The position numbers and the translations under genes are program-made. This document shows, piece after piece, positions 1-24,400 of a DNA stretch of 64,000 nt (the first letter of the stretch is position 1; each line of letters opens with the position of its first letter). The notes under the pieces are model-generated. The model ran no database searches. It had not been told where the DNA came from and saw nothing but the letters and a program-made list of their open reading frames with translations. Location of the stretch: assembly GCA_000091205.1 (NCBI GenBank), contig AP006498.2; one strand, given 5' to 3'. This DNA is from Cyanidioschyzon merolae (lineage: Eukaryota).

Positions 1-159
1 CCCCCCATTCCTCGGATCACATTGATTAGGTGATCTCAGTGCGGGAGCATCTATGACATCGGCGTCTTTTATTTCAATGGCGATAGGGTATTCTCCTCTG
101 ACGGTTTGATCTGGGCTCATACGCGTCTGGTATAGCGTCGTTTACTACATACCAAAGCT

Positions 160-3100
160 AATTGGAAATTACCACGGGCGCTTTGCTTTTTCTGGTTTAC
201 TGAACTTTTGCACTGACCAGACGGATTAAATCGCTTCTTTGATATTGGTTTCGAAAAAATCCTCTCTCATTCCGAACGATCCCTGTGCATTGCATTTCTT
301 TTTCTTACTCTCGGCCTTATTGGTCGTTTCACACTCTTATCCTACGCCGGATGCCTGCCGTATGCACCAGCCGTAATCTAGTTATCGCTGGTGCTGGTGC
401 ACTTAGGAAATACAGCAGCCTTGACAATCTACTGAGCGTGGCGGTGGAGGCTTGTTTCATGCAACGCGGAAGCATGGCTATTTATATTTCTTGGAGCCTC
501 CAAGCTGTACTATCAGCCTTCCTGCCTGGTAGTCGCGGTGCTTTGTATTGGAAGACCGCCACGCCAAAATTTATATTCAGATGCAGCATACTTGGTCATG
601 ATCCAACAATCAAATGCGTTCGACTGAGATGCTCAGGTGCGGTTCATCCCTCGCCACTGAAAAGTCACACGGAGGACAGGCCGGTTCGTTCTCGCGGCTC
701 GCACACCTCCCGCCTAATCTAACAGTGTGACCATACGCAAAAACTTCTCTCTTCAACGTTTCCGGTTGGTGGCGATAGTACTTGCTATTCCGTTTGTGTA
801 TATTGTTGTACTAGTTGGCATCTTCTATGTCGTGCGCCCTGGTGACGCATCGCGAAATCTGGCCGTCACCTCACACTACGTGCGTCTTGCCGATCAAAAG
901 AAACGTGTTAATGACCTCTTGTGGAGCGACTGCTGTATCGGGGCCACTTGTTTTTGCGATCGAATCGTATCAAATTGTAGTTTTGGCTTCAATAGCGTTT
1001 CAATCTTCAAGTAAATTTATTCAACTGATTTTCGCCTTTCAAAGCAGAAGCGTCCAATGAGTTTTTCTCCCAAATAAAATTGACTCATGTAAATCAAGGG
1101 GGTGGGGGGTACGGGGTGGCAGATGTGCCCGGATGTCAGAACGAAACGAGACATGCTGCCCAGCGAAGAGGGCCAGGAAAAAAGAAGAAGCAACATTTGG
1201 AGGCCTTAGATCGAAGGCTGCCATGGTGACGTCTGTACGACGAGATGGTGGTGGAATCCTATCTTCTCCAACATATCAATGATCCGTACGACTGATTGTT
1301 GCGAGACGCTATCAGAAAGCGTGTCGGTTCGTACGCCAGGTATGTTTGTACCTTCTCTTTAGGACGTTGGCATTTGGAGAGCGAGCTGCATCCGGAGGTA
1401 ACGCACATCGCAGAAGTGATGTTTCCGGAAGAAATTTTCCAAAAGACTTTCATCAACCACCTGATTGTTTTTAATGGGAAAACATCGAGGATAAATGAGC
1501 GAGTGCATGCCTTTCTCAAAAATTACGCCAAGTACCTCGTCATCGGTGCTGTACACAGGGGTGACGTAGATATTTACGAATACAGGGCAAAGAGGTGCCT
1601 CAGGAATGTGAGGAACCGTAGCATCGCAACCCTCGATTGTTTCATGATACGCGTCGTCTTTGCGCTGTACCCGGGCCTATTTCGCGAAGCGATGCTTGCA
1701 ATCATCGATGGTATGAAGAACGATCGCCAGCATGAACAGGAGATCAGATTCGTCGACAAGAGGACATCACGCCCGAGAAGGAATATTGCTTTTGTTATCC
1801 GCGCGACTATTCTAAAACATCGTTCACGCTTGGGGCTTGTCGACCCTAGAGAAAAACTGTCAGATATGATCAAAAAAGACGAAGAAAGATTTTAGTCCCT
1901 CATCCTGCCCTACTTCATTTTTCCGACCGAAAACTCGAACGCAAGGCTGACATGGAGCTGAGTTTGGAAAAATGACCGACGGGAGAACGGACGTTGAAGA
2001 GCTTCTCCAGATGCGCTTCGTTGTCGTCCGGTTACGCGAGTTCAAGTCACATGTTGTGAATATCGACTCTAGAGTCCTTTACGCCTTCATGAAAGAGTTC
2101 TATCCAGTGCTCGATATAAGCAACAAAGGGGCCACCGGCGAAGACCGGGACACCTACTGGAAGAAGCATTTCGATTCCAAGTGTCCCAAACCGGCCAAAA
2201 AAGGTATTCACGGGGACCATCGATAACGATGATGGATACATATGGGTACATTAGTAGCGGTTGTAAGTACTTCGTCCTATCTCGTCTTCGTTGTCGCCGT
2301 TGCCGATGCACGAACAGAAGAAGATGGGCGATGGAACGTATAATCGCCACGAAAACGACTTTGTCGTCGACCTTAACCCTAGGAACACGAATATCATAAC
2401 AATCGCAATACCCGAGTGTGCGGAAGATGGTACTGAATGTAACGTACGTCAGAGAGACATGCATCTTTTGAGGCTCTCGAGAGCGAGATACTATCGAGAA
2501 TCCTGTATAATGAATGCAAAAAAGAAAATTGCAGCATGGAATGAAGGAATGAAAGAGCATATGGAAGCTATGGGCGAGGTGACTAGCCGCGGAGCGGACT
2601 ATAAAGCTTTTCGGAAATTCATGGAAGTTCGCGTCGCTCATTGGGATGCGCTGTGGAAGGAGTATACAAAGCCCCGGTGGGCTCGTCTGCGAATAAATTT
2701 GTATTGCGGGAACCAGCGGGCGTTCGCCAACTTTTTCAATCAATTGGGTGCCTTGAAATAGGATGACAGTCAGAGGCTCGCAGTAGCGTATGGATCAGGG
2801 CGATGGAAGACCCAAAAGGGACTACTCCAGCTCTGTCGACAAGAACATACAATGTGTGTTAACGGCGTTTCGTCACGATACCTGTCGATGAGTTTCGAAC
2901 GTCCTATACACACCATGAACTGGGTTATACACTTCAGAGAGTGGAGGTAGAAAAGGGCCAGCGGAGCCCTGAGGATATAGAAAAGTACGGACCGCTGATG
3001 GAGGAGCAAATGGAAAGGCGAACGAAAGTCCGAGGGCTACTCGCATTGGTGAGTGCAACTTCCAATGGCAAGTTACGTATGGGGTTTGTGAACAGAGACT

Positions 3101-3317
3101 TTAATGCCGCTATCAAGATACGGAGGTGTGCGATGCTGGAGAACAGACCTCCAGAATAGACAAGAATGATCTTTGTTGGACAATATCCCAAAGTCGGATT
3201 ATATGAGAAAAAGTTTGAGCCAGTAGTAGGTGGCCGGTACAAAAAGACGGGGAGGCGTCTGCACGTTAGTTGGAGACGTCTTGTCTAGTGCGGGTTTCTC
3301 GCCACTACTGTACACTG
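160..3317 (+). mobile_element. Copy A of a TnpB/Fanzor-like element. The left boundary is uncertain and may reach the window start; the right end is at the conserved ...GCCACTACTGTACACTG.
   Basis: Nucleotide and peptide homology to copy B (21440..24635), traced by eye from about 160 to 3317 (about 60-75% identity). It contains a decayed Fanzor-like reading frame. Homology to copy B stops exactly after CACTG at 3317. Confidence 0.55.
1296..3288 (+). pseudogene. Decayed TnpB/Fanzor-like nuclease gene, copy A. Frameshifts and stops split it into ORFs 1296..1895, 1972..2226, 2291..2761 and 2941..3159.
   Basis: RuvC-I-like ENDFVVDLNPRNTNIITIAIPE. RuvC-III signature FVNRDFNAAIKI (D-x-N-A-A-x-N-I). 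A shared tail PVVGGRYKKTGRRLHVSW is followed by TAG at 3286..3288. The pieces lie in different frames, so the gene is not intact. Confidence 0.6.
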
Positions 3318-4034
3318 TTGTCGTTTGACTTAGAACGGCGTTGTTGGTGTCAGGGCTTCGATGCATAATATGTTTACGCTTTCGTGTCTTGTAATCTTCC
3401 GTTTTCGTGCTTTCCACTGCAGGAGTGGTAAAATTGTGCAACTGTAATCCACTTCTGCTTCACAGCCGTCTGGTGCCATTCTATATGATGTATCAGTGTC
3501 ACTTTCTTTTCGGTTTTTTTGAGACAATGTATTCCATCACTGATTCTGATATTTTTTCCTCGTATAAATTCCTGAATGCCTTACACCACCGCTTCGAGAG
3601 TCAAGCAACAGAGCAGACCGTTAACATCCACAAATGTGAAAACAGTCTGACGGAACGCCTCGCAGCTTGACAGCCTCCACGACATCTCCAAGCTTCGATG
3701 CATGTGTATCGCGGATCGACCTGTCTCAAGTGACCAACAGGACCTGCTATTTTCAGCCACGGCTCGATGATGCATCACATCTCGTTTCCATTCTATTGTC
3801 AATCCACAAATTTTGCGATCGCGTGGATCCATGGATGCAACCTCACCCATACATCTACAGGGCTCAGGTTCCATTCATGACCAACGTACCTTACAATATG
3901 CTGTTTGAAGCCTTCTTTGTTATAAATAACATGTTTTCATCACCGCTCGTTCATACATTTCAGACAGTAGGCGTAGCAGCTCATGATGGGGCTCACGTCC
4001 TGGTCGACCGTGGACTCTGCATCAGCTTCGCTGC

Positions 4035-6323
4035 TCAGCAGGCAGCAGCCACAACACTCACACGAGCCTCCTTCAAAATGCGCGCTGCTATCGTCCACAT
4101 GCGATACAACCCTTCTGCGTACGGCATGATACCGACCGTACTGTCTGTGCCGAGCATTGAACCCCATATGGTACGCAGCGCACCTACACGTGCAGGCCAT
4201 AGAACAGCATGCGCGACAACATGAGACGGATACGTTCCGTAGCAGCTCACGAGAATGCCGTCGACAACAAGACGCCCTGAGCGCGTCAGCGGTGCATAGA
4301 GGCCATCACGCGTAACAAGAGTGTCGATCGCGACTACCGGATCCGGGAGATCCGAGGCAACGTCCAGCAGAGCGTCGCCAATGCGGATATCTTCTGCGAA
4401 CGCTGCCTCAATGGCAGAGGTCTCAAGCTCAAGGCTCTTATGTATGCGCTGCTGCTGGTTCCGTAAATGACCTGTCGCAATAGTTATTATACTGCCATCC
4501 AGGACTCTTGAGTGTTCGTGCATCCGATACACCAGATGCTGCCTCGTCAAGCGTAGCTGCTTCCCAGAAAGCGTCTTGATCGCAAGGATCTCCACTACAG
4601 CACCAGGCTCGTTATGCAACCATCCCAGTACAGTATCCTCGACGAGCTGCCCACGTCCATTGACGCCAATCACCACCATACCCGGGCGCAACTCGCTCAT
4701 CAGCACCGTATTGCCTAGACGATCAACCATTACAGAGGCCTCCGCAGGGAAGCATACCGCGGAGCCTGTGCCTACTGGGACCTCTGTTACGTTCGTTGTT
4801 GCTGACATTGTCGCAGAGTACGACGCCGACACCGACACTGCCGGACTTGCTGTAGGCGTTATAGTTGGAGTTGGTGTAGGAGTAGGATACGGCGAAACGA
4901 ATACCTCCGATAGAGAAAAGACATCATTAAGTAACCCGGTGATAGGAACTGACCCATTTGCATAGCCAAAGCCGCCAAATAGAACTGGATCAAATGCCGC
5001 AAACGTCGCGTCATTTGATTGAGAGACCCATATAGTAGAGCCAAATCGACCACCCGGTTTGACTGAACTATTGGTCTCGTTAACGACTCCGTAGAAGCTC
5101 AAACTGTTCGGCATTGCACTACCGTTGATCCACGCCCATTGTCCAAGCTCCGGATCAAATACCCAGAGGTCATTCAAGCATCCGCTGAGGCTAGATGCAG
5201 CGGCCAGCCCGGCGCCACCAAATAGCTGAAGATTACCCAAAGAGTCCACAAAACTGACGCTACCTAACCGACTACCAGGCGTATTCATCGCAGAATACCC
5301 TCCAAAGACGTCGTAAACGCCGAAATTGTTTGAAGTCTTCCCTCCAGTGACATAGACCCAGATACCGGTGCTTATGTTGTACATCCATAGATCGTTGAGG
5401 TTGCCGTACTGCGTCGTGCTGTTCCCGTAGCCCCTACCACCAAACAGCCACAGATTACCATCAAGATCAACCCACGTGGACGCAGCGTGTCGTGCACCGG
5501 GAGCGTTTGAGGAGTTTCCAACACCAGGAGCGCTGTAATTACCGTACTCATTGCCAACTAGGCTACCTCCGACCCAACCCCATTCGGATGTAGTGGTGTT
5601 GAATACCCATAAGTCCGCACGATCACGAAATATGTGATCGGTACCACCAAAGAGCCACAGGTTATTATTCATATCAGTCCAAAAGGCAGCACCATCCCGA
5701 GCACTCGGACTAAAACTGCTGCTGAAGCTTCCTTTTTGTCCGCTAGCGCCAGGCGCGTCCACTGTGTCGTTCCCTGCGATCCAAGTCCAGTTTTCTGTAA
5801 ACGGATCGTACTGCCACAAGTCGTTCAAACGACCAATGTCTCCGTTCTTATCAAGACCGTATCCTCCAAAAAGGTAGAAGATGCCAGTAGATGTCTGCCA
5901 AAACGCGGCGTTTTCCCGAGCACCAGGCATATTAGACGAGTTCGCCTTCCCGAGCGTCCCATAGGTACCAGACTGGTCGGGAACCGATGACCCACCAATC
6001 CACGTCCACTCCAAGGATGATTTATTGAACACCCATAGGTCGTTCAGGTGTCCTATGCTTGCGTTTGCTTTCCCTTCACCACCGAATAAGTAGTGACCGT
6101 TCGGACCCGACCAACTAGCGGCGCCATGCCGCGCGCCTGGCGTGTTGCCCGTTGCTGGAAGACTCTTGTTGCCGTAGATTCCAGACCCGTCGGTACGCTG
6201 ATTGCCCCCTACCCAAGTCCAAGAAACCGTATTCACGGGAGTAGCTACGAGCGTGCGAACAGCAAAGCTCACAAACAGGTAAAGAAAGAAGCAAACAGTA
6301 GGTTTAACTCTGATTATAACCAT
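4035..6323 (-). CDS. Secreted Kelch-repeat beta-propeller protein with a C-terminal Hedgehog/intein-type Hint (Hog) autoprocessing domain.
   Basis: 762-aa ORF. N-terminal hydrophobic signal peptide (MVIIRVKPTVCFFLYLFVSFAV). About six repeats of the Kelch/galactose-oxidase pattern (LFGG...LNDLW...W.W..G). PT-rich linker (PTPTPTPTITPT). Then CFPAEASVMVDRLGNTVLMSELRPGMVVIG...TRQHLVY...LYAPLTRSGRLVVDGILVSCYG, which matches the Hedgehog Hint module (CFPG..V.L..G....DL.PGD.VLA...TAAHL...TxxGTxxVNxVLASCYA). Confidence 0.7.
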   Translation of the reverse strand: MVIIRVKPTVCFFLYLFVSFAVRTLVATPVNTVSWTWVGGNQRTDGSGIYGNKSLPATGNTPGARHGAASWSGPNGHYLFGGEGKANASIGHLNDLWVFNKSSLEWTWIGGSSVPDQSGTYGTLGKANSSNMPGARENAAFWQTSTGIFYLFGGYGLDKNGDIGRLNDLWQYDPFTENWTWIAGNDTVDAPGASGQKGSFSSSFSPSARDGAAFWTDMNNNLWLFGGTDHIFRDRADLWVFNTTTSEWGWVGGSLVGNEYGNYSAPGVGNSSNAPGARHAASTWVDLDGNLWLFGGRGYGNSTTQYGNLNDLWMYNISTGIWVYVTGGKTSNNFGVYDVFGGYSAMNTPGSRLGSVSFVDSLGNLQLFGGAGLAAASSLSGCLNDLWVFDPELGQWAWINGSAMPNSLSFYGVVNETNSSVKPGGRFGSTIWVSQSNDATFAAFDPVLFGGFGYANGSVPITGLLNDVFSLSEVFVSPYPTPTPTPTITPTASPAVSVSASYSATMSATTNVTEVPVGTGSAVCFPAEASVMVDRLGNTVLMSELRPGMVVIGVNGRGQLVEDTVLGWLHNEPGAVVEILAIKTLSGKQLRLTRQHLVYRMHEHSRVLDGSIITIATGHLRNQQQRIHKSLELETSAIEAAFAEDIRIGDALLDVASDLPDPVVAIDTLVTRDGLYAPLTRSGRLVVDGILVSCYGTYPSHVVAHAVLWPARVGALRTIWGSMLGTDSTVGIMPYAEGLYRMWTIAARILKEARVSVVAAAC

Positions 6324-8883: not shown

Positions 8884-10425
8884 CTACGCTTTGTTCGAGG
8901 CATGTAATCGACGCCAGCGCTCATGGGATTCGTTGACGGCAAAATCAGCGTCCGTAAATCGAGCTCGGAATCGTTCATCATCTTTCTCTCGTCGGCGACT
9001 CGAGGTGCGGTTCTTCTGCGAATCCACAGCTCTGATGCGCTGCTGCTGCTGTTGGGCGATTCGCTCTTGAATGCGCAAACGACGCCATTCCTCATACTCG
9101 GCGGGATTTATGGCCGATCGAGTCTTCCGATACAAGGAAAGTTCAATCAAAAACCCGTGCAGATGAGGAATTAAAGCATCAGATCCGAGGAGCGATTCCA
9201 GTCCCAGAGCGGAGAGTTCGTCTCGAGTCACAAACCGATAGTGGTCATAGATCGCCACGACCGAATCCTGCTGCGAAACCGTCGATTCCGCGAGTTCCTC
9301 TGTCAAATGTTCCAGATAGGCACACCATTTCGGAGCCGGGCCAAGTGCTGGTATAAAATAGCAATGAACAGGTCGATCTGAACAAGCTGCCATGACGAGT
9401 CCGGCGCCGCCGAATGAGGTCTCCAGCTGCTCGATATCAGCAGGAGTCTCGAAACTCAGAAAGGGTGCGTCCTCTAATCGGAGGTCACCGAAAATTTTCA
9501 CGCATTTTCTGTCCGCTGCAACTAGCCAGGAACGATTCGGCTCGTGTGCGCCAACGTGGATGCTGACCGACTGCACGGGGAGGCCAAAGCCGAGCGACCG
9601 TACCCCAAGTGGTCGTTCTGATCGAATATCATACAGCAGTAGTGTCCCGTCATCCAGCCCAACACCAAGATGTAGACCCTGAAACACGGAACAGGTCACA
9701 GTGCTGTTCCCGAGTTCTGTTGCATGCTTGGCAGGATTGAAGCAGCCCGCTCGCCGATGCGGTTCTTCGCGCGGATCGAACACTTCATAAAACCCCGAGT
9801 CACCGCCAGCTCCGAGCAAGTTAAATTCTTTGTTGAGCTGCAGAGTCTCGTTACTCGCGGAAAATGTTTCTAGGGGCGGCAAGAACCGACCCTCGTCAAG
9901 GTTCAAGCGATACACGCGAGACCCAGCCGCGGCAACGTACAAGTCACAGTTGCTCGGGTGATAGGCCAAGGCTCGCCCAGCATGCGGAATACGCACCTTC
10001 TCGTGCAAGCCGCCCTGCGAGTGCAACTCAATAAATCGATCGTTTCGTAGAATAGCCAGCTTTCGCCAGTCGTCTTCAAGAACGAGAAGATCCACAGGTG
10101 CAGCGTCAAAGTGGCGCACAAACTTGAGACCCAGCTCTGCAAACTCGAAAACTCGCAGCTGCGGTGGGTATGTCCCAACTGCAACCAAGTGCGTACCGGA
10201 AGGTGTCGAGCGAACTCGCACACACGATCCAGGAAACTCAAGGTCCTGCAGCAGTTGGATCTGTGCAGCGTGCGCGCCTGTCCTTGCACGAACGTCTCGA
10301 ACGTTTCGGCGCGACGCTTGCTTCGAGCCTTTGGTGACTTGCTCAAGCGGCGTTTCTGCAGGCGGAGAGGTAATGTGGTACACCGCAGCACCAGGAACCG
10401 CTTGGCGCTCAAAGGTGCGCACCAT
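8884..10425 (-). CDS. NOL10: Nucleolar protein 10 (NOL10/Enp2) homolog: WD40 plus a NUC153-like domain.
   Basis: 513-aa ORF that can be aligned along its length to remembered human NOL10, for example: RIPHAGRALAYHPSNCDLYVAAAGSRVYRLNLDEGRFLPPL; LLLYDIRSERPLGV; YFIPALGPAPKWCAYLEHLTEEL; YRFVTRDELSALGLESLLGS; HGFLIELSLYRK; NPAEYEEWR. Confidence 0.8.
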   Translation of the reverse strand: MVRTFERQAVPGAAVYHITSPPAETPLEQVTKGSKQASRRNVRDVRARTGAHAAQIQLLQDLEFPGSCVRVRSTPSGTHLVAVGTYPPQLRVFEFAELGLKFVRHFDAAPVDLLVLEDDWRKLAILRNDRFIELHSQGGLHEKVRIPHAGRALAYHPSNCDLYVAAAGSRVYRLNLDEGRFLPPLETFSASNETLQLNKEFNLLGAGGDSGFYEVFDPREEPHRRAGCFNPAKHATELGNSTVTCSVFQGLHLGVGLDDGTLLLYDIRSERPLGVRSLGFGLPVQSVSIHVGAHEPNRSWLVAADRKCVKIFGDLRLEDAPFLSFETPADIEQLETSFGGAGLVMAACSDRPVHCYFIPALGPAPKWCAYLEHLTEELAESTVSQQDSVVAIYDHYRFVTRDELSALGLESLLGSDALIPHLHGFLIELSLYRKTRSAINPAEYEEWRRLRIQERIAQQQQQRIRAVDSQKNRTSSRRREKDDERFRARFTDADFAVNESHERWRRLHASNKA

Positions 10426-10550: not shown

Positions 10551-10560
10551 TCTATATATA
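10551..10560 (+). promoter_or_regulatory. TATA-like box (TCTATATATA) about 35-45 bp upstream of the permuted tRNA gene.
   Basis: tctatatata at 10551..10560, the only AT-pure decamer in an otherwise GC-rich intergenic stretch. Its position relative to 10595 fits an upstream Pol III TATA element as described for permuted tRNA genes. Confidence 0.4.
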
Positions 10561-10594
10561 TCAATTTTCAACCGAATTTATACGTCGCGCAGCG

Positions 10595-10690
10595 ATGAGA
10601 AGGTCATGGGTTCAATTCCCATCGAAGGCTCAGGACGCACAAAACGTGCTCCAGGCCTTCGTAGCTTAGTGGTAGAGCATCTCACTAGTA
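10595..10690 (+). tRNA. Circularly permuted tRNA-Thr (anticodon AGU). The 3' half (positions 38-73) is at 10595..10630, a 24-nt intervening sequence is at 10631..10654, and the 5' half (positions 1-37) is at 10655..10690.
   Basis: 3' half: A38, TGAGA (39-43), AGGTC (variable loop), ATGGG-TTCAATT-CCCAT (T arm), CGAAGGC (66-72), U73. 5' half: GCCTTCG (1-7), TA, GCTT-AGTGGTA-GAGC (D arm), A26, TCTCA (27-31), C-T-AGT-A (32-37). The acceptor stem pairs 7/7 and the anticodon stem 5/5 across the two halves. The T stem pairs 5/5. The anticodon loop CUAGUAA is identical to yeast tRNA-Thr(AGU). The gene is followed directly by TTTTTTT at 10694. Confidence 0.8.
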
Positions 10691-10693
10691 CCT

Positions 10694-10712
10694 ATTTTTT
10701 TCTCGGTTTTTT
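10694..10712 (+). terminator. Pol III-type oligo-T terminator (TTTTTTT then TTTTTT) immediately after the 5' half of the permuted tRNA.
   Basis: cc-ta-ttttttt-ctcgg-tttttt directly 3' of position 37 of the tRNA. Confidence 0.6.
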
Positions 10713-10727
10713 GGTCATCTCGACAAA

Positions 10728-11576
10728 ATGGTGTCAGAGTATACTACAAACGTTTTAGACTTAGTGTCTAGAACAAAAACACTCCAGGAGGCTGTGGAAG
10801 AGCTCGTTTCACACATCCACGGTGCGGCGCTCGCGCAAGCGCTGCACAGCTGGAGTCTGGACTTGGGAGCAGCGTCTCAAAACGCTACCGCAACACGAGA
10901 GCGAGCAATAGCCGCACTATGTAGCTGGCAAGTGCTCGACGCCCTCGACGCGGGAACCGCTCCAGCCGGCTGTGTGATATTTCGCGACATCACCGAAGCC
11001 GAGGCGCACCAGCTCCGGGAGCGATTCCTTAGCATAGGCTGGGCAGCGGAAGAGCCAGAACCAACAGTGAACGGCGCCCGGGTTCCTGAATCGCAAGATA
11101 CAGGCTCCAGCGAGCCGTCTGGGTTCTCTCTGCGCGCACTGAAGCCCAGTGACTCCGCTCACTTCGGAAAAGTCTTTCAGTTGCAGGATGCGACCGTCGC
11201 GACGGAGTACATCGACGACGAAGAGCTTATATCAAGCACCGAGCTTTCCGGGGCACAGAACTCCGAGCAAGCGAACGGAAAGACTTCTGGCTGTGGGACA
11301 TCCGGAGTGGCTTTGGCCAATCGCCAGCCATGTGCAAACTGCACATGTGGACGGCGAGACCAGCAAGATGCCGCAGTGAACGGTGGTTCTTTTTCAGAGA
11401 ATACCGCAAAGAGTGACCCAGCAGGGAAGACGCCAACTATGGAGACTGGCTCCTGTAACAGTTGTCATCTCGGAGATGCCTTTCGCTGCGCGAGCTGCCC
11501 CTACCTCGGCTTGCCGCCCTTCAAGCCTGGTGCCCCGCTCAAAATCGACGCCAAGCTTCTCGAAGGAGACCTCTGA
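10728..11576 (+). CDS. DRE2: Anamorsin/Dre2 (CIAPIN1) Fe-S cluster assembly protein.
   Basis: The C-terminal CIAPIN1 twin-cysteine motifs CANCTCG ... [28 protein letters not shown] are almost identical to the family consensus [28 protein letters not shown]. Confidence 0.8.
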
Positions 11577-12140: not shown

Positions 12141-13658
12141 CTAGGCCCGTAGACGGTACAGCGTTGCCTCCGAACTGGCGTCGCCCTCGTCATAAATGTC
12201 TGGAATACCATAAATCACGTCGAAAAGATCACGAACATGCATTTCTATGCTATGGACAAGGAGCGCGACGGCTTCATCACGGATGCCGGTAACAGCGTTG
12301 CGTGATGCGGACCGCGGCATCCCGTTAAACCCGAGTGGTACGCACTCGTACCCAAGCCAGACTTCGTTTCCCGTATTTGTGCTAGACATCTGCTCCACAG
12401 CTTCGAGCAGCTGCACGAGACGTCGCTTAAGTTTCAGGAAAATCTCAATATCCAAGCTGAGGCCTGGTGGAAGCGGCGAGAATGGTAGCGAAGGATACCC
12501 CACGCTACCGGGGTCTCCGCTTCCGTTCCCGCTGCTCCCGAGGCGGGCAGCTCGTCGCAACGGCATGCCCCGTTGCTTCGCCATTGCCACCGTCATTGCG
12601 TTCGCCACGGCCGGTGCGTCGAGGCGCTCCGATCGGCGCAAAAGCTCCCGTTGCCGAAGATCTGCTGTTGCCTGTTGGAATATGGCCTCATCACGATAGG
12701 ACGCGGTGCTCACAGTCCCAGTGGCATTAGATTCGCCTTGCAGACCCTTGCCAAGCGCGCCTCCTGCTTGGCGCTCAGCAACATGAAGGCGGGATCGCCG
12801 GTCCGTAGTAGCGGCATTTGCAGCGGCGCGAGTTCGAACGCGAGGACGAGTGCCCTTTTTGCGTACGGTAGCGACCAGTTCGGTATGGTGCGATGACACC
12901 TCAGCTGTTTCGGCGTCTCCGGCAGCATCAAGGTTTGCCACAGGTGTGGAGCCCTCACTGCGTCGTCGCTTCGCAGGTCGCCGCGCCGTACTTCGGCCGC
13001 GATGCTCCGCTCGGGCGAGTTGCTCGGCCTCTAAACTGCTGAAGGGTTTCAGCTGCAATAGATACTGCTGTCGCTGCCGCGATGATCGGTTGTGCTCCCA
13101 TACATTCGGCAGCGGCGGCACATTTGTATGTGCTCCGTGTAGGGCGCGGCTCTGCAGGTCACGCAGGAACATGTTATGCTCACGCAGTTCACTTGTCGAG
13201 AAGATTCCCTGAAGCGCATCTTGCAACTCCATCTTCGTAAGCTGCGCTTTGAAGAAGCCTCGAAGAAGCTGAAAATACTTCATTTCTTGGTCTGGTGCGA
13301 GTTCGAATCCGACGACCTTGAGGCGCTGCCGAAAACTCCCCATCGAGGACGCCCCTTGCATTCTGTTTCCCAGTGATGCATTTGGACTGCTGTCAGCGCG
13401 TGCACCGCCAGGCTCCGCTTCATGACCAGTGCTGGACATGCGCTGCTGGGAGTGCATGCCAATCCAGTGCGCATCAGTGGATACAGGGCCCTGCTCGGCT
13501 GGCGCATCGACGGTATCCATTGCTGGTGCGATACCCTGAGCAGCATGAGAAGCTTTTCCATGTCGTCCCGGGGGTGTCCCGTTCTGCTTCGAAACCATAT
13601 ATGCGATAGGTGGCCCTGCAACTCCATCGGTATCGGTAGCCGTTTCGAGTTTGGGCAT
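12141..13658 (-). CDS. Hypothetical nuclear protein, possibly a transcriptional adaptor 1 (SAGA-Tad1 domain) homolog.
   Basis: 505-aa ORF. The segment MKYFQLLRGFFKAQLTKMELQDALQGIFSTSELREHNMFLRDL resembles the Tad1 motif (KYW.L...F..GKLSR.ELD......L.....LHN.LI..IL). The rest is low-complexity. Confidence 0.4.
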   Translation of the reverse strand: MPKLETATDTDGVAGPPIAYMVSKQNGTPPGRHGKASHAAQGIAPAMDTVDAPAEQGPVSTDAHWIGMHSQQRMSSTGHEAEPGGARADSSPNASLGNRMQGASSMGSFRQRLKVVGFELAPDQEMKYFQLLRGFFKAQLTKMELQDALQGIFSTSELREHNMFLRDLQSRALHGAHTNVPPLPNVWEHNRSSRQRQQYLLQLKPFSSLEAEQLARAEHRGRSTARRPAKRRRSEGSTPVANLDAAGDAETAEVSSHHTELVATVRKKGTRPRVRTRAAANAATTDRRSRLHVAERQAGGALGKGLQGESNATGTVSTASYRDEAIFQQATADLRQRELLRRSERLDAPAVANAMTVAMAKQRGMPLRRAARLGSSGNGSGDPGSVGYPSLPFSPLPPGLSLDIEIFLKLKRRLVQLLEAVEQMSSTNTGNEVWLGYECVPLGFNGMPRSASRNAVTGIRDEAVALLVHSIEMHVRDLFDVIYGIPDIYDEGDASSEATLYRLRA

Positions 13659-21439: not shown

Positions 21440-24400
21440 CCGGCGGCGGCGGCAGCGGGTGCAATTCGTTTTGTTTTCGATGACAGAAGGCGTTTCCATG
21501 GATCAGGGGATCCCAGATTGCCGGATGGACGGGTATTGGCATTCGGGAATGCGTCCAGGATGCTGCAGCCTATCTCCAAGTTCCATTGCTTGTACTTTCT
21601 CTCGGAAATACTGGTTGTTCTGTGGGTTCTATCGTGAACAGAGTGCCTGCGTCGCTGCTCCCGCCGTAGCGTCTATATCGCTGGAGTGGATGCAGCACGG
21701 AGATAGAGCTGTGCTTTGTCGTACCACTGAGGGTATCTGTTCGAGGAACGCTTCACCTGAAACGGTGTCGGGATACATAGTGAGTTTGGGAGCCAGAAAT
21801 CTGTCCAGACAAGCCTAGTGCCTGCGACAGCTCGAATTGATATTCTGGGCGTCCACTGCGACCCGGGCGACGCCCAGATGCAGCGGAACTGCCCCGAGTC
21901 TCAGAGTCAACTGCGTTGCGTACGAGTTGCTCAGATCTCGCTAGAGCACCGGGCACGGAGGAGAGCATGGAGCACGAGCCTGGCAGACTCGCGCGGCTTG
22001 CAGGATCTGCCACCTATACGGTAAACTGTCGACAATATGGAGACATTTTCCCGCTTTTAACGTTTATCTCAGAGGACGAAAGAAATCGTTGTATCGTTGC
22101 TAGTTGGTGAATCGTTTTTGCTCTTTGTTTGCATAGCGCGGTCGATACGCGCACCTCCATATCTGGTAGTCACGAGATGCGCCTTGCATGTGGCAGTTGA
22201 AGGGAAACGCGAGACTGACCATTTTTTGACGTTTTGTTTTACTGTACAAGTCGCATTTGCGTTGAGCGCATAGCAAATTATAGTGTTTCATCTCAGTTGT
22301 GTTTTTACCTCCAAGCAAGTCTATTCAAGTGATTTTTTTGCGGTTTATAACTCAAGCGTTCAATGAGCGTTTTTTTTCAAAAATTAAAAAAAAAAAAGCA
22401 AGTATGGAGAAGGATGGTGAGGATCCTGGAGGCCTGGTATCACCGCTTGGCAGAAAAAAAAGCGAAAAACAGCGCCAAACAAAGAGGAACAGGAGAAGAC
22501 GAAAGAGCAGACGGTGGAGGCGTGACGTCATAAGCTGCGAGAAAGATGACAGTGCGACGAGATGGTAGTGAAAGCCTGCCTCCTTGGTCATATCAAGGAA
22601 CCGTACAGGCAAAAGTTGCTAGAGCCCATCAGAAATCATGTCAATTCGTAGTCCGCGAGCATTACAAAAGCCTTCTTCACGACTGAGGTACTTGGAAAAA
22701 TAGATGCATCGCGACGTTACATACATCGAAGCAGTCGAGGATACGGAAAAAGCTTTGAGCAAGGCCTTCATCCACCACTTCACGATTGGCACGGAGACAA
22801 TGTCGGGGAGCAATGAGCGAGTTCACGTCCTCCGGGAAAATTACGCCAAATATCGCTTCAACGGTACTCGATACAGGTGTGATGCGGATATTTGCACCTA
22901 CGGGGCGATCAAGTACCTCACGAGCCTGAAGAACCAAAGGACCATCAACCTCGAACATTTCATGGTGCGCTCCATCTTTACACTCCACCAGGGGCCTGTC
23001 TGGAAAAGAGAGCTAGGCTATTATAGATGGCATCACGAACGATCCCCATCATGAAGATGAGATCGAATTTGTCGACATGAAGACATCACGCATGAGAAAG
23101 AGTGAGGCTTCTGCGATCCGTACGGCAGCACCGGAGCACTGTTCGGTTCTGGGGCTGGCGAATCCAGCAGAAAACTGATCAAATGTTAAAAAAGATGTAG
23201 AAAGATGTTATCCCCGTATCAAGCGGTATTTCGTGTTCCTAAATCGAGAACTCGACCGTAAGGCCGAAAACAGCTGAATATGGAAAAAATGAAGAGTCGG
23301 AGAGACGCAAGGCTGTCCTGATGGGGAAGCGCTTCAATATCGTCACGTTGTGCAATATCAAGTCACATCTTGTGACAATCGACTCCAGAATCCTTTACGG
23401 CATCATGAAGGAGATCAGTCCATAGTTCGATGTAAGGAAGATATGGTTCACCTGCGAAAACCGAGAGACGCACCGGAAGAGTATCTTCGACTTCAAACGT
23501 CTCAAACGAGGAAGGAAAAGCCATCCATGGGGACGATCGAAAGCGATGGGGTAGCCATGTATGTACACTATCGGCGGTTGGAGGCGGATCGTTCTGTTCT
23601 GTCCTCGGGTTCGCCCTCTGCGAAATATGAACATTAGAAGGAGGTGGATCCCGCGACGCAGAAAGTGCATGAGAACGACTTTGTCTTTGGTGCGAACCCC
23701 GGGGGTACGAATATCATAACGATCGCAGTACCCAAGCGTGCGGAAGATGGTGTTGACGGCGATTTACGTCAGAGAGACATGCGTGTTTCGAGGTTCTCGA
23801 GAGCAATATACTATCGAGAATCCGGTAAAATGAATGCGAGGAAGAAAATTGAGACACGGAATGCAGGAGTGAAAGAGCACCTGGATGCTTTGAGCGAGGT
23901 GACGAGCCGCGGAGCGGACTGGCAAGCTTTTCGGGAGTTCATGGAAGTTCGCGTTGCTCGCTGGGAGGCGCTGTGGGAGGAGTGTACAAAGCCCCGATGG
24001 GCTCGTTTGCGTATGAATTTGTAGTATGGGACACAGCGCGCGTTCGCGAACTTTTTGAATGAGTTGAGAGCCCTGAAGGAGGATGAAAATCAGAGGCTCG
24101 TATTAGCGTACGGAGCAGAGCGATGGACATCGAGAAAAGGATGTATGCCAGCTCCAACGACAACAACGTACAAGGAGTGTGCGCGGCGTTTCATTACGAT
24201 ACATGTAGATGAGTTCCGAACGTCCTATACACACCATGAACTGGGGTGTACACTTCAGAGGGTCGAGATGGAAAAGTGCCAGCGGAGCCCTGAGGATATC
24301 AAAGAGTACGGAGTGCTGACGGAAGAGCAAATGGAAATGAAGGCGAAAGTTCGAGGGTTACTTGCACTAGTGAGTACAACTACCAACGGCAAGAAACGGA

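Follow-up and report, generated by a model that had tools for sequence, protein, structure and literature searches.

The window analyzed here is a 64,000-nucleotide stretch of contig AP006498.2 of the Cyanidioschyzon merolae assembly GCA_000091205.1, and its ORFs at 4035-6323, 8884-10425, 10728-11576, and 12141-13658 exactly match BAM81677-BAM81680 of C. merolae 10D, including CMP005C. The second and third of these ORFs encode NOL10/ENP2 (8884-10425, minus strand) and anamorsin/CIAPIN1 (10728-11576, plus strand), respectively, and in the 302-bp divergent intergenic region between them lies a tRNA-Thr(AGU) gene with its halves in swapped order. On the plus strand, the 3′ half (tRNA positions 38-73, 10595..10630) comes first, followed by a 24-nt intervening sequence, CAGGACGCACAAAACGTGCTCCAG (10631..10654), that joins U73 to G1, and then by the 5′ half (positions 1-37, 10655..10690). 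Both halves were delineated by direct reading, by ARAGORN, and by a covariance model, and the reading bears out every coordinate that an earlier note on this DNA had assigned to the halves and the spacer.

The 3′ half consists of A38, the 3′ strand of the anticodon stem (TGAGA), the variable loop (AGGTC), the T arm (ATGGG-TTCAATT-CCCAT), the 3′ acceptor strand (CGAAGGC), and the discriminator U73. The 5′ half contains the 5′ acceptor strand (GCCTTCG), TA, the D arm (GCTT-AGTGGTA-GAGC), a single A, the 5′ strand of the anticodon stem (TCTCA), and CTAGTA, that is, C32, U33, the anticodon AGT (10687-10689), and A37; position 17 is absent. Rejoined, the two halves form the cloverleaf that the earlier note had proposed, with fully paired acceptor (7/7), anticodon (5/5), T (5/5), and D (4/4, one G.U) stems and the anticodon loop CUAGUAA. 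Given the C after A37 and the G before A38, 37/38 is the sole junction that yields this 7-nt loop. The rejoined 72-mer is called tRNA-Thr(agt) by ARAGORN, and its cloverleaf has a folding energy of -22.4 kcal/mol, compared to -23.8 kcal/mol for the minimum free energy structure.

The flanking signals reported in the earlier note are also in place. The TATA-like element TATATATAT, the presumed promoter, occupies 10553..10561 on the plus strand and starts 42 nt upstream of A38. The proximal leader TACGTCGCGCAGCG (putative extent 10581..10594, plus strand) ends in AGCG (10591-10594) and would be removed at G10594|A10595. The trailer region (10691..10712, plus strand) comprises CCTA, a T7 run (10695-10701) that begins 4 nt after A37, CTCGG, and a second run, T6 (10707-10712). 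T stretches are the terminators of RNA polymerase III. On the strength of this biology and of the published description of C. merolae tRNA genes, in which a TATA-like sequence is located no more than 50 bp upstream and a T-stretch downstream (PMC3978253), the T7 run is the putative terminator. The TATA-like box and the T-stretch flank the whole unit, with the function of both predicted from position, and the spacer itself (10631-10654) contains neither a TATA-like element nor a run of at least 4 T.

The C. merolae spacer can form a hairpin stacked on the acceptor stem (-9.0 kcal/mol, z=-3.7 versus shuffles), and in one strain variant (L010) two spacer substitutions re-register this hairpin without abolishing it. 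As a general feature of the gene, the hairpin was rejected: it is strong only in C. merolae and is not seen in Cyanidiococcus or Cyanidium.

The earlier note had also stated that no ordinary colinear tRNA gene could be found in the window, and this holds: ARAGORN, with introns off or on, finds 0 tRNA genes in the native 64-kb sequence, and Rfam yields no match at gathering thresholds. In the native order, the Rfam tRNA model (RF00005) recognizes the T arm alone, at 14.6 bits against a gathering score of 29. For a permutation-aware search, we built a covariance model (R1) from 40 ordinary class-I colinear tRNAs from unrelated metagenome loci, leaving out those that contained either of the two motifs used to fish their loci; the tRNAs were permuted in silico at 37/38 with random linkers of 8-40 nt and aligned, and the projected structure was checked. 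R1 matches 10595-10690 end to end with a score of 68.1 bits, with 21/21 standard pairs and no non-canonical ones (E=7e-18 filtered and 3.6e-18 unfiltered, both strands, 64 kb), by far the best match in the window, where the runner-up scores 10.2 bits (E=0.84). In a structural scan, the combination of a 7/7 acceptor hairpin with a T arm and a D arm was detected at this site only, and nowhere in five dinucleotide-matched shuffles. The R1 score and the structural scan together exclude a chance resemblance. When other permutation types (20/21, 50/51, and 59/60) and intron-containing tRNAs were scanned for in the window, candidates appeared at the chance level. ARAGORN with introns, run on circularized sliding windows, placed 25/25 matches on this locus, but the same method also produced matches in shuffled sequence, 29 of them in one of 20 shuffles, and was therefore discounted as a significance test. 

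This gene has been published. The C. merolae genome is reported to contain 11 permuted tRNA genes, in a review that credits Soma et al. 2007 (PMC3978253), and Table 1 of that review lists a Thr(AGT) gene of type II (37/38) with a 24-bp intervening sequence and no intron. The organism, anticodon, junction, spacer length, and lack of an intron all agree with this entry, and we therefore consider the two to be the same gene; a comparison with the catalogued locus (Soma et al. 2007 Science 318:450; PMC3978253), which extends to the TATA-like box and the T-stretch, shows no difference. Thus, the exact ORF matches and the catalogue alike support the identification made in the earlier note, namely a circularly permuted tRNA-Thr(AGU) with the gene organization known from C. 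merolae, and the gene itself offers nothing new, being a known, published permuted tRNA-Thr(AGU). Still, one of the 11 permuted genes published in C. merolae can be recognized from raw sequence, though both ARAGORN and Rfam miss it. The nuclear tRNA gene complement of C. merolae is 43 genes for 42 anticodons, with Gly(CCC) as the sole duplicate (PMC3978253), so that there is no back-up copy for Thr(AGU). We are highly confident that the locus is a single-copy, circularly permuted nuclear tRNA-Thr(AGU) gene of C. merolae 10D, of type II (37/38), that would be processed via a circle. Our literature search, the coverage of which was incomplete, found no paper that pairs tRNAThr(AGU) with merolae.

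We examined the conservation of the gene at two depths. Six strain-level contigs (from metagenome, ENA, and Logan data), 98% identical around the gene, carry no substitutions in the 72 exon bases, and all changes fall in the distal leader, the spacer, or the trailer; within the leader, 10581-10594 is invariant, compared to 5 substitutions in 10570-10580. The set is too shallow for covariation, and the invariance of the exons against the variable leader, spacer, and trailer is an apparent case of purifying selection. In three of the strain variants (L003, L013, and L014), the 5′ half is followed by T8 rather than T7, and gene callers lengthen the CIAPIN1 ORF to 323 aa (P0018) by shifting its start about 123 nt upstream through the tRNA gene (equivalent to window 10606-10727). 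The extended ORF starts in the T-stem region, by arithmetic near the ATG of ATGGGTTC, a putative start codon. This extension is an annotation artifact that hides the tRNA.

More divergent relatives were recovered by searching with NOL10, so that the identities given are those of the protein: 75% for Cyanidiococcus yangmingshanensis (L016), 76% for a second lineage (L017), and 52% for a third (L018), the proteins of which cluster with Cyanidium caldarium. Each of the three has CIAPIN1 and NOL10 as divergent neighbors with one permuted tRNA-Thr(AGU) between them, on the minus strand of the respective contig: L016:9738-9833 (R1 score 66.6 bits, spacer 24 nt), L017:9592-9687 (69.7 bits, 24 nt), and, in the Cyanidium caldarium-like L018, 9755-9882 (58.0 bits, 56 nt). 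ARAGORN found no tRNA between CIAPIN1 and NOL10 in any of these contigs. The spacers of the orthologs, 24-56 nt long, are unrelated in sequence. The exon changes across the lineages include one compensatory swap in the T stem (U50-A64 to A50-U64), two one-sided changes compatible with pairing, and one break (C27xA43). Standard pairs fill 99% of the pair cells, compared to 31-52% when the register is slid; covariation among the five sequences was not significant (97/500 shuffles). All four divergent permuted orthologs (4/4) have a TATA-like element between -40 and -44, and each has a run of at least 4 T in the interval +5 to +16 relative to A37. These results suggest that the permutation predates the split between the Cyanidium and Cyanidioschyzon lineages. 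In the literature, again with incomplete coverage, 'permuted tRNA' was found together with Cyanidiococcus, Cyanidium, or Galdieria only through citation of Soma 2007. In the Cyanidium-like contig, ARAGORN run with introns allowed also reports a tRNA-Asp(atc) at L018:16732-17022, with an intron of 198 nt; this call falls within a squalene-hopene cyclase ORF and is almost certainly a false positive that stems from allowing introns.

A colinear counterpart was detected in a contig of 69.6% GC from Logan SRR31152685 (L019), where ARAGORN with introns identifies a tRNA-Thr(AGU) gene with an 18-nt intron at 37/38, on the minus strand at 2491-2581 (5′ half 2545-2581, intron 2527-2544, 3′ half 2491-2526). 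This gene adjoins the upstream side of NOL10 and is encoded on the other strand, in the same relative place and orientation as the permuted orthologs, and a TATA-like element can be read by eye 42 to 31 nt upstream of G1. The other neighbor of this tRNA is an amino-acid kinase gene in place of CIAPIN1, so the synteny is partial. The NOL10 protein of L019 is 45-48% identical to those of Cyanidioschyzon, Cyanidiococcus, and Cyanidium, and 43% identical to that of Galdieria phlegrea; by protein distances alone, L019 would be placed as a more distant red-algal outgroup. The L019 colinear gene may represent the state before permutation. According to the current model of origin, permuted genes arise when an intron-containing tRNA gene is duplicated in tandem and the outer halves are then lost (PMC3728597), and the pair formed by the permuted gene and the L019 colinear gene appears to fit this origin. 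If this is the case, the 3′ end of the intron would be the ancestor of the leader. The L019 counterpart bears on how permuted genes arise and is, like the other comparative results, a side result of modest specialist value. Two more distant NOL10 loci, L020 and L021, have no adjoining tRNA or include no upstream DNA.

Eukaryotic tRNA introns at 37/38 are cut by the Sen endonuclease, which relies on the mature domain and an anticodon-intron (A-I) pair, and in the canonical arrangement C32 pairs with the base 3 nt upstream of the 3′ cut, with a 3-nt bulge. A strict bulge-helix-bulge (BHB) motif, hBHBh′, consists of a 3-nt bulge, a 4-bp central helix, and another 3-nt bulge between flanking helices. 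The earlier note had expected a BHB at the junction of leader and trailer; in the folding models, the strict motif cannot form at this locus, and only a relaxed, eukaryote-like version can be drawn. In the canonical register, with the bulge C10593-G10594|A38, positions 32-35 (CUAG) face 10592-10589 (GACG, read 3′ to 5′), and only 2/4 central-helix pairs form, C32:G10592 and U33:A10591, with A34 opposed to C and G35 to G; no h′ helix longer than 2 bp forms at the locus. RNAfold constrained to the cloverleaf gives a self-hairpin of the leader (10585-10595) that buries the 3′ cut site, and central-helix pairs are present in 0/73 suboptimal folds within 3 kcal/mol. Constrained and unconstrained folding of the precursor from several start and end points, together with a search for leader-trailer duplexes, revealed no BHB. 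The relaxed hBH motif that can be drawn includes the anticodon stem and the bulge C-G|A38, with C32 paired to G(-3) and U33 to A(-4); the best leader-trailer duplex has an energy of -1.4 kcal/mol, and adding these two pairs by hand is unfavorable, at +1.4 kcal/mol. A candidate helix between the far leader and the far trailer (AACCGA/TCGGTT), suggested by the alignment with the YrlA family discussed below, was rejected, being located past T7 and not kept among strains.

The leaders of the four divergent lineages are unalignable except for their ends, AGCG, GGTG, GGCG, and AGCG, all of the form R-G-Y-G. With such an end, C32 can pair with G(-3) and U33 with R(-4), leaving Y-G|A38 as a 3-nt bulge. 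The same conservation also fits G35:Y(-2) plus U36:G(-3), the choice of RNAfold in L016 and L018, and the C32/U33 pairing is therefore suggested, not proven. The intron of the L019 colinear gene ends in CGAGUC|A38, with AGUC at the 3′ end, and so keeps the G(-3)/R(-4) rule. The helix between leader and trailer comprises 8 bp in Cyanidiococcus, 3 in Cyanidium, and 2 elsewhere. Together, the junction results suggest that the processing signal is a minimal eukaryotic 3′-splice-site motif rather than a full BHB. Since the site offered to the endonuclease departs from a textbook BHB, we think that the mature domain and the anticodon-intron pair would be the main features by which the cut sites are recognized, as in ordinary eukaryotic 37/38 introns.

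The type II permuted genes of prasinophyte green algae (Ostreococcus and Micromonas) and of the Bigelowiella natans nucleomorph (Maruyama et al. 2010) have the same order of 3′ half, spacer, and 5′ half and the same 37/38 junction, and their junctions are described as relaxed hBH, typical of eukaryotic introns (review PMC3978253), resembling the one that can be drawn for C. merolae Thr(AGU). They differ in belonging to other lineages and other isoacceptors (mostly Ser, Leu, Cys, and iMet) and are presumably of independent origin. Canonical eukaryotic 37/38 introns share the cut positions, but there the intron is a loop, whereas in the permuted gene the role of the 'intron' falls to leader and trailer, the transcript's two free ends, so that ligation circularizes the RNA. 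The permuted tRNAs of the archaeon Thermofilum pendens and the split tRNAs of Nanoarchaeum equitans are likewise disrupted and repaired by splicing endonuclease and ligase. However, archaeal permuted genes break at 59/60 and archaeal split tRNAs come from separate loci; the C. merolae gene does neither. The two T. pendens junctions contain 'no H' or hBHBh′ motifs (review PMC3978253), whereas the strict hBHBh′ is the one predicted to be unable to form at the C. merolae Thr(AGU) locus.

Several other explanations of the locus have to be weighed. The halves could be a pseudogene relic of a tandem tRNA-Thr duplication, of which the inner halves survive and the outer ones have decayed, as the accepted model of origin indeed posits such a duplication (PMC3728597), with which the L019 colinear ortholog agrees; besides, junctions between adjacent colinear tRNA genes also score well with R1, up to 57.7 bits in the arrays of the marine contig L008. 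Yet in the C. merolae gene all 21 pairs are intact, including the 7/7 acceptor and 5/5 anticodon stem pairs that form across the halves; the exons are invariant or compensated and the spacer is scrambled, even as the identity of the flanking protein drops to 52%; the TATA-like box and the terminator bracket both halves as one unit; the window retains neither outer halves nor any colinear tRNA; and Thr(AGU) is without a back-up copy in the 43-gene set (PMC3978253). A decayed relic thus appears very unlikely. A split tRNA of the Nanoarchaeum kind, with a separate transcript for each half and joining in trans instead of a circle, would agree with the weakness of the leader-trailer pairing, owing to which structure alone does not prove a single folded precursor. 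However, both halves lie on one strand, separated by no more than a 24-nt spacer free of TATA-like elements and of runs of at least 4 T, the sole promoter-like and terminator-like signals flank the whole unit and are conserved in these positions, and both linear precursors and circular intermediates have been sequenced for algal permuted tRNAs (PMC3978253). We consider joining in trans to be highly improbable.

The remaining alternative is a chance likeness or some other RNA, for example one of the Y RNA-like type that carries a tRNA-like module. Indeed, the top Rfam match in the native order is the YrlA family (RF02553), which aligns to 10569-10712 with 33.9 bits (E=1e-5 in a 501-nt search), but this score is far below the gathering score of 69, the family is bacterial, and the match is explained by the tRNA-like module of YrlA having the same order of T arm, acceptor, and D arm. 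Furthermore, the R1 score of 68 bits, the complete anticodon arm with a Thr anticodon, and the lack of a comparable structure in shuffled sequences make this possibility practically negligible. The cross-match itself is an independent reflection of the permuted layout and could be put to use because sub-threshold YrlA matches in eukaryotic sequence could cheaply flag permuted tRNA genes.

For a permuted tRNA-Thr(AGU) gene, the following pathway can be proposed. A single transcript would start slightly downstream of the 10553-10561 box and end in the T7 run at 10695-10701, and would include, in this order, a short leader, the 3′ half, the 24-nt spacer, the 5′ half, and a short trailer. In the computed fold, the halves form a normal cloverleaf in which the spacer closes the acceptor stem and the anticodon stem is open-ended. 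The tRNA-splicing endonuclease would then cleave on the 3′ side of A37 and the 5′ side of A38, the positions used in a canonical 37/38 intron, and a ligase would join A37 to A38, producing a circle from which RNase P and tRNase Z would excise the spacer at G1 and U73, followed by addition of CCA. [quoted passage not shown] For algal permuted tRNAs in general, there is northern and aminoacylation evidence as well as RT-PCR of circular intermediates (PMC3978253), and the circle predicted for Thr(AGU) would give rise to a mature aminoacylated tRNA.

Taken together, these observations outline a scenario in which the permuted Thr(AGU) gene is old and syntenically fixed, L019 would carry its before-and-after counterpart, and the junction is constrained only at R-G-Y-G and is recognized in the eukaryotic manner, not as a true BHB; to this scenario as a whole we give roughly an even chance. 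The deep synteny, the R-G-Y-G rule, the lack of a strict BHB, and the colinear, intron-bearing counterpart may be new and are the only parts of this analysis that potentially are.

Three contigs from marine metagenomes, L002, L006, and L008, contain dense colinear arrays of 22, 18, and 48 tRNA genes in 4.0, 3.2, and 8.3 kb, respectively, including tRNA-SeC; these contigs were recovered only because the D arm of a tRNA-Thr(TGT) matched the search pattern. In the C. merolae window, the G+C content of the segments 1-4000 and 22001-24000 is 0.47-0.48, compared to the window average of about 0.55, and the segment 22001-24000 shows strong positive GC and AT skew.
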